From a virus, in IMG/VR virus record IMGVR_UViG_3300037840_000188, positions 64,001 through 128,000 of that record: DNA of 64,000 bases, one strand, 5' to 3'. Both the position numbers and the translations under genes were made by a program. Shown here piece after piece: positions 3,898 to 23,825 of the stretch; the stretch's first letter is position 1, and every line of letters starts with the position of its first letter. Under the pieces are notes generated by a model. It was not told the DNA's origin and ran no database searches. It saw only the letters and a program-made list of their open reading frames with translations.

Positions 3898-4119
3898 CTA
3901 GTACTTCTTCGACATGCCCCTGGACTTCTCGTGTTCCTTGTGCTCTTTCTTCTTCATGCCGATGGACTCGTGCTTGCGCCCTTCCTTCTTGTGCGCCATT
4001 TCCTTCTTCATGCCCATCGATTCGTGCTCTTCGGCTTTCTTCATCGGAGATCTCCTTTTGGATTGCCCGCTGATGTAGCGGCGGGTTGTGGTTTCGATTT
4101 GTGAGAGTTCGTCGGGGAT
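3898..4119 (-). CDS. small Lys/His/Glu-rich protein (ATG at 4044) with in-frame upstream extension resembling the MCP N-terminus
   Basis: MKKAEEHESMGMKKEMAHKK...; RBS AGGAG before 4044; upstream PDELSQIETTTRRYI. Confidence 0.7.
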   Translation of the reverse strand: MPDELSQIETTTRRYISGQSKRRSPMKKAEEHESMGMKKEMAHKKEGRKHESIGMKKKEHKEHEKSRGMSKKY

Positions 4120-4127
4120 ATGCGTGC

Positions 4128-4403
4128 CTATTTGACGCTGCTGTGGCCCTGTGCAGCCTTATTCCCGATAGGTTTGAAACAATCCTCCATGGAAGTCATC
4201 AAGTGCTCTGCCGCGTCTTCCTTGGTGGCGTGGACGGCAGTGTGGGACTCCGAGGGTCCATACTCATCGCCCTCGGCACGATGACGGCTCCGTGAGATCA
4301 CACCGCCCTCAGCAGGTTCGAAGCTTATCTCGACGAGCTTCTTCTTGCCTGTCTTCGGCTTGTGTGCCTGTTCACGGAGAGCGATAGCTGAGGTCTTGGC
4401 CAT
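4128..4403 (-). CDS. hypothetical head-operon protein
   Basis: ORF track, operon context. Confidence 0.7.
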   Translation of the reverse strand: MAKTSAIALREQAHKPKTGKKKLVEISFEPAEGGVISRSRHRAEGDEYGPSESHTAVHATKEDAAEHLMTSMEDCFKPIGNKAAQGHSSVK

Positions 4404-5347: not shown

Positions 5348-6454
5348 CTACGCCACAAATCCGAACCCGGACGCATGATATCCCGGTAAGACCGATAAAT
5401 TGTGCGCTAGCAACACTTTACCGACTATTTTGGTGTTTCCAGCGCTGGGGATAAACCCATCATCATCCAGCGTCCCGTTGAACGGCGCATTCTTCGAAAT
5501 GCGGTACTTGATGTTCGGCTTGCGGGCGTTCAGGAACCAGATCGATTCGCCGCCCTGAAGGTTGCCGGACGGATACGCGGTCACCGCGCCGCCAGTGGTG
5601 TAAGACAGGTACCTGGTCGCCACGCGGTCGTTGGTGCCGCCGCTGGCTGTCAGGTAGGAGCCGGGAGCGTAACGAGAAGCCAGGATCACCGCACCGTTGT
5701 ATTCGAGGCCACGGAAACCGCCCTTGGCGATAGTGACGTTCTGGAAGCGCTGCTGAGTCTGATAGTTCGAACGAATGTAGCCCTGACCCTTGGCAGTTGT
5801 CAGGATGATGTTGGGCTCGTACTCGCCAGAACCATAGTTGACCGACTGGTACATGTTCTCCATCACCGGGAGGGTGATGTTCGCACCGGCGAAGTTGACG
5901 GGCGCGGGAGCCAGCATACGGCCACCATACAGCGAGCGAGTCAGGGTGCCATAGATCGGATAGGCCGAACCGTCCCAGCCGGGCGTCACGCCGTCAGAGA
6001 GGGCTTCATCGAGGCCGTTGATGACCTTGACATACGCGCCAGTCTGGCCCTGGAGATAGAGCTGGAGTGCGGTCTGCGCGCCGAGTTGCATGTAGGCGGA
6101 GTCCACGCGCTCTTCGACGAGCTTGATTACCGCGAGCGGCCCGTTGTTCAGCACCTTGATGTCTTCCTTGTAGAAGGGGATCATCACGGTCTGGTACTTC
6201 GGATCGAAGCGCAACTGCTGCTCGATCTGGCGCTGGTCGGCAGGCAGATCCTGACCCTTCGAGTACGAACCGCCATCCTGGACGTCATACTCGATGTTGT
6301 CGTTCCACGAAGAGCCGCCCTCGACCTCATCGAGACAGTTCTCGTCGAGGAAGGACATGAGCGGATCTTTATTGAATACGAGATCACGGAGCTTTGGCTG
6401 TTCGTCGATGTAGCGGCGAGTCGTGACTTCGATTTGCGAAAGAGTGTCAGGCGT
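5348..6454 (-). CDS. major capsid protein (probable ACG start at 6454; first ATG at 6358)
   Basis: Follows scaffold; ~368 aa; open frame extends 32 codons upstream of the ATG as (M)PDTLSQIEVTTRRYIDEQPKLRDLVFNKDPL. Confidence 0.8.
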   Translation of the reverse strand, partial: TPDTLSQIEVTTRRYIDEQPKLRDLVFNKDPLMSFLDENCLDEVEGGSSWNDNIEYDVQDGGSYSKGQDLPADQRQIEQQLRFDPKYQTVMIPFYKEDIKVLNNGPLAVIKLVEERVDSAYMQLGAQTALQLYLQGQTGAYVKVINGLDEALSDGVTPGWDGSAYPIYGTLTRSLYGGRMLAPAPVNFAGANITLPVMENMYQSVNYGSGEYEPNIILTTAKGQGYIRSNYQTQQRFQNVTIAKGGFRGLEYNGAVILASRYAPGSYLTASGGTNDRVATRYLSYTTGGAVTAYPSGNLQGGESIWFLNARKPNIKYRISKNAPFNGTLDDDGFIPSAGNTKIVGKVLLAHNLSVLPGYHASGFGFVA

Positions 6455-6486
6455 ATAGGTACCCTACCTTTGCTAGCTTAAATTCG

Positions 6487-7419
6487 TTACTGAACCGACT
6501 GAAACGCATCCAACAGCTTCGACCGGTCGTAAACTTTCTTGTCGCCACCGATTCCATCGCGTGACAGCGGCGATGGTGTACCGGCTCCAGTCGACGACGA
6601 CGCGCCCTCGGCACCTGCCGGGAAATTCGACTGCAACATCCGCTTCTTCATCCGCTCATTAACCTGGTCTTCGATGCGCTTTTCATCGGCGGCCAGCCGT
6701 GCGGCTTCAGCAGTCTTCTGGTCTTCGAGCACATTTGGCGCATCCCACTCTTCGTAGGCCTTGACCACGTCGCCCGCGATCTCTGGCTTTGCGGCCAGTT
6801 CGTCGAGCTTCTTCCAGTCGATGGGAGTCTTTTTGCCACGCGCGATATTGCGCATGATGTTCATCTCGACCGCAGTTCCGACTCCAATAAGAGTGCCCGT
6901 CACCTTCGGCGCGTAGACATTCTTATATGCCTCTTCGACACTCTCCTTCGCAGCGCCAGTACTGATTTCTTTGGCGATTGCCTGGACTTCTTCCTTGGTC
7001 AGGCCGGGGATCGAACTCGGGAGAGCAGGCGGGGTGGTGGTTGCGCCAATCTTCCCGTACTTGGCCTCATACTCCTTGACAGAAGCTTCAAGCGCCTTAC
7101 TGGAATCTTCGAGTTCTTTCAACTTGTTTGCGTTCCCGGTGATCGTCGCGTAGTTCTCGGCGTACCATTGCTGGTACTTGCGGCTGCCGGGCTTCGCATC
7201 GGTACCGATCAGTTCGGCTTCGAGTGTGGCCTTCGCGGCTTCGATCTGCTGCTTCTCGGCGAGCAGAGCATTAGCACGCTGCTCGATAGCCTGATACTCG
7301 GTGGCTTGGCGAAGTTGAGTTACCTTAGCCATCGTACTTGCGTTGCCAGTGAGCTTGGCGACCTCTTCGGTCGTCAACCCGCCTTCAATCAAAAGAGCCT
7401 GGAATTCTTGTGCGGTCAT
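6487..7419 (-). CDS. putative scaffolding protein
   Basis: Coiled-coil, charged, low-complexity C-terminus, immediately upstream of MCP. Confidence 0.7.
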   Translation of the reverse strand: MTAQEFQALLIEGGLTTEEVAKLTGNASTMAKVTQLRQATEYQAIEQRANALLAEKQQIEAAKATLEAELIGTDAKPGSRKYQQWYAENYATITGNANKLKELEDSSKALEASVKEYEAKYGKIGATTTPPALPSSIPGLTKEEVQAIAKEISTGAAKESVEEAYKNVYAPKVTGTLIGVGTAVEMNIMRNIARGKKTPIDWKKLDELAAKPEIAGDVVKAYEEWDAPNVLEDQKTAEAARLAADEKRIEDQVNERMKKRMLQSNFPAGAEGASSSTGAGTPSPLSRDGIGGDKKVYDRSKLLDAFQSVQ

Positions 7420-22568: not shown

Positions 22569-23825
22569 CTAGTTTACCGACAACTCATACTCATAACAGG
22601 CCCCTGGATTCATGCACTCGTTAGTTAGCTGCTCGATAAGCTCTGGCGACAAGGCCCCTTTATGTGGCGATTGAAAGGTCTCTCCGGGATCAGCCCCAAA
22701 ATTGGTCAGAAACTCTGGCAACTCTCCGTTACTTACATGCTCTGCCCGCGTGGACTCCCACCAATAAAGCTGCTCGCGAGTCGGTCGATATGTAATGCCA
22801 TCATTGAACTCCGGCGAAGTGCGCTCGATCTTCTCGGCGTGCTTACGTGTATGCTCTTCCGGAACCCAATCATCTGGCGCAATGGCTCGATATTTGGTTT
22901 TGTTATACCACCACGGAACGAAGCAATAAATCCAGTCCTCGTAACCTCGACGGTGCCACCTCGCTCCCTCCGAAGACTCATGCCAATAATTCCCCTTACC
23001 GTCAGACGTAGATTCCTGCACGTGGAGGGTCGTGATGGCTTTTGGAATCGAAGGAACGAAGCTGAACCTTATTTTTCCAGGCTGCTTGAATAACGCGACC
23101 TCAGTGAGGTGCGAAATATCGTTCTGCGTACCCGTGCCAAAGCCAGTTTCCGAATTCTCCGCCTGATAGCTGATACGACTTGATATCGGATCTTCAAATC
23201 CCAGTTCCGCATTCTGTTTGTCAGGATAAATGTTAGGCTTTAACCACCAGGCGAGCTTATCGAGAAAGAGATGATCACGAGCAAAAACTTCCGAAATGCG
23301 CTGATCGTCGAGAGTCGCGAACAGGCCGCGCACTGGATACCAGAAAAGCATCCGATGCCACATCATGCCGCGCACTGTCGCTGTTGCGGCGACCTGGCGA
23401 ACCTTGTGGATGTACGCCTTAATGCCTGTCGTGAACTTATACTTGCGCTGCTCTTCGTGGCACTCTACCTCGCGCTTGCCAAAAAGTTTGATATATCGAT
23501 GCTGAGATTCAAGCAGCATTGGCGGTCCGATACCGCTGCCACGCCCGACGCCGGGGTCGATTTCCAGATTGAAATATCTCGAAAAAAAATACTCGAAGTC
23601 TACCTTGCATAACAGGCGCTCACTATCCAGAAATTCTTCTTCCTCGCGGTTTAGTGGCCTGATTAATTGCCCCTGCGGTAGGAGCTTTCTTGTTTTCGGA
23701 TCGCGAATCAGCGTCTCTAGGTGCGTAGAAAATTCAATCGAACGGTCGCGGCTCTGGCGCTGGAATTTGAGACCAGCCTTTTTGGCCTTGTGTAAACGCT
23801 GGGCGATTATTTCCTGACTGTACGT
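22569..23825 (-). CDS. terL: terminase large subunit, ATPase half (probable ACG start at 23825)
   Basis: HKVRQVAAT Walker A-like, HLTEVA Walker B, ESTSDG coupling motif, FVPWW; frame open 102 codons upstream of first ATG with RBS GGAGA. Confidence 0.8.
   Translation of the reverse strand, partial: TYSQEIIAQRLHKAKKAGLKFQRQSRDRSIEFSTHLETLIRDPKTRKLLPQGQLIRPLNREEEEFLDSERLLCKVDFEYFFSRYFNLEIDPGVGRGSGIGPPMLLESQHRYIKLFGKREVECHEEQRKYKFTTGIKAYIHKVRQVAATATVRGMMWHRMLFWYPVRGLFATLDDQRISEVFARDHLFLDKLAWWLKPNIYPDKQNAELGFEDPISSRISYQAENSETGFGTGTQNDISHLTEVALFKQPGKIRFSFVPSIPKAITTLHVQESTSDGKGNYWHESSEGARWHRRGYEDWIYCFVPWWYNKTKYRAIAPDDWVPEEHTRKHAEKIERTSPEFNDGITYRPTREQLYWWESTRAEHVSNGELPEFLTNFGADPGETFQSPHKGALSPELIEQLTNECMNPGACYEYELSVN

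Follow-up and report, generated by a model that had tools for sequence, protein, structure and literature searches.

How translation of a phage capsid gene begins when its frame offers no ATG, GTG or TTG ahead of a conserved N-terminal sequence is the question raised by the minus strand of the window, by which we mean the whole 64,000-nucleotide stretch of DNA analysed here (bases 64001-128000 of a 140,995-base IMG/VR virus record). The codon found at the position where orthologous genes start is ACG, a codon that NCBI table 11 does not list as a start.

The capsid gene and the position of its start

The open frame matches PHROG 9953 'major head protein' with an E value of 4e-13 over residues 7-262, and tblastn found 24-25% identity to proteins annotated as major head proteins in Myxococcus phage Mx9 and in two Tunturiibacter phages; a search for Pfam domains in the capsid protein gave no match. 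An AlphaFold2 model of moderate quality (pLDDT 65.5, pTM 0.68), built with 35 homologous sequences, shows the N-terminal 28 residues as disordered. Superposition of this model on the PDB by Foldseek returned top matches that were all HK97-fold phage capsids and encapsulins, with E values down to 8e-7 and a probability of 1.0. As judged from the modelled structure, the gene product is the major capsid protein, with a predicted HK97 fold. Relatives of the gene were searched for in 185,579 species-representative genomes, and none was found there.

The preliminary description of this locus had reported a capsid frame open for 32 codons 5' of its first ATG and bounded by TAG-GGT-ACC-TAT-ACG-CCT, which is exact on the sequence. 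In the capsid frame the minus strand reads TAG, GGT, ACC, TAT, ACG, CCT and GAC, and the first ATG, GTG or TTG is the ATG at 6358-6356, codon 33. The upstream gene ends with a TAA at 6489-6487, and a 32-base spacer separates it from the ACG (Table 1). Within this spacer lies AAAGGTAGGGTA, the purine-rich ribosome-binding site that had also been described; it is real and ends five bases 5' of the ACG, a working Shine-Dalgarno distance. Start-less leaders of at least 35 codons occur in roughly 14 of 207 crude ORFs of the genome, being uncommon but not rare by chance. A start-less leader alone is therefore unremarkable, and the observation gains its significance only through homology.

Table 1. 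Features of the capsid start region and related loci (positions in the window)
Feature	Position	Strand	Remarks
Major capsid protein gene, re-annotated	5348..6454	minus	368 codons, ACG (6454-6452) to stop TAG (5350-5348)
ACG, proposed initiation codon	6452..6454	minus	aligned with the start codon of orthologues
Spacer CCTAT	6455..6459	minus	5 bases, TAT at -3..-1
Purine-rich Shine-Dalgarno region AAAGGTAGGGTA	6460..6471	minus	hexamer AGGGTA at 6465-6460
In-frame TAG	6464..6466	minus	closes the frame three codons 5' of the ACG
Second in-frame TAG	6475-6473	minus	
Codons 2-32, N-terminal arm 5' of the first canonical ATG	6359..6451	minus	purifying selection
First canonical ATG (Met33)	6356..6358	minus	choice of gene finders; no Shine-Dalgarno sequence
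Upstream gene	6487..7419	minus	310 codons, no family match; occupies the usual place of the scaffolding protein gene
Old, incomplete copy of the start region and the first 26 codons of the capsid gene	4051..4131	minus	tblastn 69% identity over 26 residues
ACG start of the large terminase subunit gene	23823..23825	minus	ordinary AGGAG Shine-Dalgarno, ACAGGAGAA

A search of 5.8 billion proteins yielded 281 capsid homologues. Among the best 120 of these (clusters, 62-98% identical), about 110, with lengths of 366-412 residues, start at the codon aligned with the ACG and begin with M-P-D-[TISL] where the window reads T-P-D-T. Nine clusters had been called at 337-363 residues from internal Met or Val codons, and one further cluster had been called with a long N-terminal extension and carries Ile at the start position. 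DNA was retrieved for eight short-called homologues, and one ran off its contig; in every other one examined the true start is near-cognate, being ACG in L029, L030, L034, L035 and L020 (= P0043), ATC in L031 and L033, and ATT in L032. As in the window, no ATG, GTG or TTG lies between the upstream in-frame stop and the conserved sequence in L020, L029, L030, L035 and L013. The window ACG, one base from ATG, is aligned with 39 canonical and 14 other non-canonical starts. The nearest relative, L037 (98% protein identity), has GTG at this position, and seven other relatives at 62-88% identity have ACG, so that the close orthologues do not all have ATG. The alignment of orthologous starts, together with the coding character of the extension and a ribosome-binding site at the right distance, supports the earlier proposal that ACG is the capsid start and places the start position, on this comparison, at the ACG.

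Codon differences within the N-terminal arm point to selection on the protein. Over codons 2-33, the window and L020, which also has ACG, differ by 22 synonymous and no non-synonymous codon changes; the corresponding numbers are 14 and 2 against L029 and 10 and 2 against L035, and the more distant non-canonical genes give 10-16 synonymous and 7-11 non-synonymous differences. In each comparison with estimable dS, dN of the N-terminal codons was far below dS, indicating that the 32-codon extension is coding. The preliminary description had derived the same conclusion from a paralogous copy of the region. Such a copy is present at 4128-4051, with 69% identity over 26 residues, but its support is weak and the real support comes from the orthologues. 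In this copy ATC (4119-4117) stands at the aligned start position behind a degenerate version of the leader; a Lys-rich ORF of 48 codons (ATG at 4044) lies in the same frame, and an unrelated 60-codon gene occupies the same place in the sister phage L037.

Start codons and leaders across the family

Start regions from IMG/VR, JGI metagenome loci and other sources were pooled and duplicates were removed, giving 54 distinct capsid start regions. Canonical codons were found in 39 of them (ATG in 27, GTG in 10 and TTG in 2) and non-canonical codons in 15 (ACG in 8, ATC in 4, ATT in 2 and CTG in 1). The pooled 15/54 is not a frequency, as 8 of the 15 non-canonical cases had been chosen for their short-called proteins. 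In the samples not selected by gene length, 5 of 21 loci from IMG/VR and 6 of 42 from JGI metagenomes had non-canonical starts, so that between about one-seventh and one-quarter of related phages would carry a weak start. By this comparison the non-canonical capsid start recurs in the family.

A maximum-likelihood tree of 26 complete capsid proteins revealed that ACG genes fall in both major clades, and at least five changes of start are forced by well-supported branches alone. Sister pairs differ in their starts, with ACG in the window versus GTG in L037, and ACG in L035 versus ATG in L022. Outside the ribosome-binding site the intergenic sequence of relatives differs widely. For the window and L037, the 3' ends of the upstream genes are homologous and the spacers can be aligned, the window reading TAGG-GTACCTAT-ACG versus TAGG-AGACTTACA-GTG in L037. 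Since the two spacers are alignable, the type of ribosome-binding site, the spacing and the start codon must have changed together in place. A lineage with GTG, L003, carries a near-variant of the leader, GAGGTATTTAC.

The leaders of the two classes differ. The hexamer AGGGTA occupies positions -11 to -6 in 15/15 non-canonical versus 0/39 canonical start regions (Fisher 1e-13, with relatedness ignored), and the five-base spacer from AGGGTA to the start is invariant in all 15 non-canonical genes. TAT lies directly 5' of the start in 11/15 non-canonical versus 0/39 canonical regions; UAU was reportedly found by Hui and colleagues in 1984 to be among the best triplets at -3 to -1 in E. coli. Sequence 5' of AGGGTA is purine-rich, as in GAAAGGAGGGTA, GAAAAGAGGGTA and AAAGGTAGGGTA. 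The motif is thus associated, in the regions compared, with non-canonical starts, and part of this association may come from common descent of one leader. Across the 141-kb genome AGGGTA-N5 occurs at 32 sites, of which the capsid site alone precedes a start-less conserved frame; the sites at genome positions 12248 and 35127 were checked and are not starts. Scans of IMG/VR for AGGGTA-N5 followed by ATG or GTG and CCNGAYA gave only unrelated loci among the matches listed (ATG scan), and none of the 39 canonical start regions showed an AGGGTA leader, which suggests that intermediates combining AGGGTA with a canonical codon are short-lived.

The predicted duplex between the Shine-Dalgarno and anti-Shine-Dalgarno sequences has a median of -10.6 kcal/mol for non-canonical versus -8.2 kcal/mol for canonical regions (one-sided Mann-Whitney p 0.0009), calculated with an assumed anti-Shine-Dalgarno tail that may not be that of the host. 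The tail used was GAUCACCUCCUUUCU, as in five 16S genes. In the closest pair the predicted strengths are similar, -9.1 kcal/mol in the window and -8.2 kcal/mol in L037, so that this pair gives no support to compensation by Shine-Dalgarno strength alone. In addition, pairing with the anti-Shine-Dalgarno sequence leaves the invariant GTA of AGGGTA unaccounted for.

Predicted folding of the start regions does not exceed that of shuffled sequence (window z +1.6). The hairpin AGGTA-GGG-TACCT, proposed earlier to hold the ribosome-binding site, can be drawn, but its energy amounts to only -2.5 to -3.5 kcal/mol, the minimum-energy fold of the region does not include it, and relatives do not conserve it, the five pairs being broken in L033 and L020. 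A second candidate hairpin, GUAAGU/ACUUAU around the Shine-Dalgarno sequence, occurs in five relatives only and is absent from the window. Two other readings of the leader were discarded: by eye, no hexamer in TAYYTAT fits the -10 box pattern T-A-x-x-x-T of a promoter, and initiation at the out-of-frame ATA in TATACG would enter a frame that is not the conserved one.

The large terminase subunit gene of the window phage appears to have an ACG start as well, at the position where L038 and G001 have ATG and G004 has GTG. This start lacks the AGGGTA motif. A homology screen of five genomes gave no further clear non-canonical start in the window phage, its output being mostly shadow frames. Three candidates in G000, with frames opening at genome positions 13438, 15190 and 92337, proved to have ordinary starts. 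A crude scan for a Shine-Dalgarno sequence with a near-cognate codon listed other candidates in the genome.

How an ACG could serve a capsid gene

Based on these comparisons, we propose that translation of the capsid gene probably starts at the ACG through near-cognate pairing with the ordinary initiator tRNA of the host, as an inherited and selected state. The start region would exist in two forms in the phage family. The first would combine an ordinary AGGAG-type Shine-Dalgarno sequence with ATG, GTG or TTG. The second would combine a purine-rich Shine-Dalgarno sequence ending in AGGGTA, the invariant five-base spacer, usually ending in TAT, and ACG, ATC, ATT or CTG. Close relatives would pass from one form to the other by a joint switch of ribosome-binding site and start codon. 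A stronger ribosome-binding site, exactly spaced and free of structure, would make up for the weak codon and so keep the output of capsid protein in a workable range. By this proposal fMet-tRNA would read the ACG, the strength of the site would compensate for the weak codon, and no phage factor would be needed. In E. coli, ACG gives about 0.1-1% of AUG-level initiation (bioRxiv 10.1101/063800). For the protein that is most abundant in the virion, such a level would appear insufficient, barring a difference in host or context.

A late change induced by the phage, either through a factor that inhibits proofreading by IF3 or through an initiator tRNA of its own, might instead license ACG starts, so that capsid and terminase would be translated only late. 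Two late genes, capsid and terminase, do use ACG, and the 141-kb record carries 23 tRNA genes, including one Met(CAU) tRNA with an unpaired 1:72 (an A1-C72 mismatch), which is a hallmark of initiators, but without the three G:C pairs of the anticodon stem. Against this, two relatives with ACG starts whose genomes are rated complete, G001 (62.8 kb) and G002 (94.7 kb), carry no tRNA gene, so that a special phage tRNA, such as the altered initiator tRNA considered in the preliminary description, is not needed. None of the tRNAs in the record has a CGU anticodon, no IF3 or IF1 domain was found in the phage, and no candidate for such an inhibitor emerged. The capsid gene of G001 starts with ACG but its terminase gene with ATG, which argues against a shared late regulon of ACG starts. 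We regard late licensing as unlikely.

In a different view, AGGGTA-N5 would be a cis element devoted to making initiation largely indifferent to the start codon, possibly by pairing with the 790 loop of 16S rRNA, and a canonical codon behind it would be selected against. We consider this quite improbable. If true, AGGGTA-N5 would be a new mRNA-encoded escape from IF3 proofreading for a highly expressed gene.

A very unlikely version of this pairing was considered in its own right, that AGGGUAYYUA pairs with the 790 loop (UAGAUACCCU, 789-798), the dock of the C-terminal domain of IF3, and relaxes proofreading on the capsid mRNA. This loop is bound by the C-terminal domain of IF3, and IF3 affinity falls ten-fold when position 791 is mutated (PMC3130014). 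Positions -11 to -2 of the mRNA score 8.5-10 of 10 against this loop, which is the unique best site in the full 16S for 12 of the 15 non-canonical genes (the canonical median is 4.5), at least 120 genomes were confirmed to carry this rRNA sequence, and the pairing would account for the invariant GTA. However, the match was found after the fact, and in trials with random 10-mers a score of 8.5 was attained at some place in the 16S in 22% of cases, and a score of 9 in 6%. Position -5 is mismatched in 12 of the 15, the AGG of the motif would have to serve both this pairing and that with the anti-Shine-Dalgarno sequence, and the terminase ACG start does without the motif. In addition, four of the ten target bases are presumably paired in the stem of helix 24 in E. 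coli.

Editing of C to U in the mRNA, which had been put forward earlier, would turn ACG into AUG as in plant organelles, and would likewise repair CUG to UUG. Editing of ACG starts is common in chloroplasts (PMC9845219). Relatives with ATC (4) and ATT (2) at the same position and behind the same motif could not become canonical in this way, which makes editing a highly improbable explanation. We know of no C-to-U mRNA editing system in bacteria or phages.

The ACG would be irrelevant if translation began at the internal ATG of codon 33, the codon picked by gene finders, or if ribosomes entered from the upstream gene by readthrough, frameshift or bypass, the last of which was left as an alternative by the authors of the Corndog study (PMC4351075). 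Such routes are hardly to be expected here. The internal ATG has no Shine-Dalgarno sequence, and codons 2-32 are conserved as protein. The upstream gene lies in a different frame and ends 32 bases away, and the capsid frame is closed by two in-frame TAGs, with TGA or TAA in relatives. By eye, no matched take-off and landing codons were seen in the end of the upstream gene and the spacer of the window, and the spacers of relatives are unrelated outside the ribosome-binding site.

Over 6000-6900, including position 6453, the window sequence recurs without a difference in Logan contigs (contigs, not raw reads) of two soil runs from two studies, one run possibly being the source sample; no RNA run was listed as containing the stretch. 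In a third run a relative is found whose GTG follows AAAGGAGA. A fault of assembly or base calling, or else a recent mutation that inactivated a functional ATG, as the preliminary description had allowed, would fit an ATG one base away and the canonical GTG of the nearest relative (98%). It is rejected with near certainty, given the identical contigs of two studies, the presence of ACG in seven further relatives, with cases drawn from different samples and from the four sources IMG/VR, JGI, NCBI and Logan, the co-variation of the upstream motif with the start type and the purifying selection on the N-terminal codons. Sequence comparison therefore indicates that the ACG start is an inherited mode of translation start overlooked by gene finders, and not an error.

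Relation to known systems and meaning for the phage family

Nearest to the present case comes mycobacteriophage Corndog (Cluster O), in whose tape-measure gene peptides map 5' of the first canonical start codon and an ACG is aligned with the ATG found in sister phages; its authors saw no obvious loss of expression and left ACG initiation versus bypass open (PMC4351075). Similar to the capsid gene, a phage structural gene there lacks ATG, GTG and TTG before a conserved N-terminal sequence and has ACG versus ATG in its sisters. The Corndog case differs in being confined to one lineage, linked to an inserted HNH gene and backed by peptide evidence, whereas the capsid case involves no insertion and its evidence is comparative only. 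Beyond Corndog, the capsid case extends to at least 15 distinct relatives, with the alternative weak codons ATC, ATT and CTG and one perfectly associated leader motif.

The E. coli infC gene, encoding IF3, starts with AUU, one of the rare near-cognate starts of bacteria, kept by selection and with an efficiency set by IF3 proofreading. Common to both starts would be a near-cognate codon that selection maintains and the initiator tRNA decodes. In infC, whose product is of low abundance, the start acts as a feedback sensor for IF3, whereas the capsid protein is the most abundant virion protein, and the capsid ACG, unlike the AUU of infC, has its mismatch at the middle position. The measurement of all 64 codons in E. 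coli agrees in that ACG can initiate, with Met at the N-terminus; it differs in its level of 0.1-1% of AUG and its artificial context, and gives no hint of natural use in a highly expressed gene (bioRxiv 10.1101/063800). The edited ACG starts of plant organelles are likewise genomic ACGs at the start of a conserved gene (PMC9845219). There the codon is repaired by C-to-U change, whereas the ATC and ATT of the capsid family rule editing out as a general explanation. In the literature we found no report of ACG starts in phage capsid genes.

Bacterial starts beyond ATG, GTG and TTG are seen as rare oddities of low-abundance proteins, and gene finders reject ACG. For annotation, the comparison implies that about a tenth of the capsid genes of the family are 30-35 residues too short in public databases, and that the terminase of the window phage is 102 residues too short. 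In this family of soil phages, the most abundant virion protein appears to flip repeatedly between canonical and very weak starts, the weak ones always behind one leader. The capsid start would thus offer a natural, sequence-defined system in which to study how a ribosome-binding site lets ACG serve a highly expressed gene, and it would also allow one to ask whether the stringency of start-codon selection differs among soil bacteria.

Capsid leader and the 16S rRNA 790 loop

The leader preceding the non-canonical capsid start, AGGGTAYYTA (window 6455-6465, minus strand, and the equivalent positions in 14 relatives), is complementary to 16S rRNA positions 789-798, which form the 790 loop, the docking site of IF3C. 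Across the full 16S rRNA this is the unique best site for 12 of the 15 leaders. Judged statistically, the complementarity of these sequences is only suggestive.

The full virus record G000 carries a tRNA-Met(CAU) gene and a second tRNA-Met gene. The A1-C72 end of the tRNA-Met(CAU) is unpaired, as in an initiator; its anticodon stem is without the three consecutive G:C pairs, and position 11 is C11, not A11. This tRNA is possibly an initiator of an unusual type.

Coordinates of features discussed in the text
Feature	Coordinates	Strand	Remark
Capsid N-arm copy	window 4051-4131	minus	includes degenerate leader copy
Large terminase gene	window 22569-23825	minus	ACG start position at 23823-23825
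tRNA-Met(CAU)	G000 genome 55725-55802	complement	~8.2 kb ahead of window start
Second tRNA-Met	G000 genome 54441-54517		elongator-like

Start positions elsewhere in the virus

The ACG of the large terminase gene aligns with ATG or GTG in the orthologues of the relatives L038, G001 and G004, and is preceded by an ordinary AGGAG Shine-Dalgarno sequence. The second copy of the capsid N-arm has ATC (4119-4117) at its start position and shares its reading frame with a Lys-rich ORF of 48 codons, for which a separate Shine-Dalgarno sequence and ATG are present. In the 98% sister phage L037, an unrelated 60-codon gene occupies the place of this copy.

A crude scan of start-less leaders for near-cognate codons accompanied by a Shine-Dalgarno sequence gave a candidate CTG at G000 genome ~365 (plus strand), preceded by AAGGA; the ORF concerned, of 498 codons, has its first canonical start 51 codons further downstream.

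Gene annotation

As called by gene finders, the terminase protein is 102 residues too short. Public annotations of the capsid genes of L029 (NCBI GCA_040383985.1), L020 and L030-L035, relatives with non-canonical starts, are 30-35 residues too short because callers accept only ATG, GTG and TTG. In the capsid homologue cluster P0091, the annotated protein is instead extended upstream, with Ile at the true start position.
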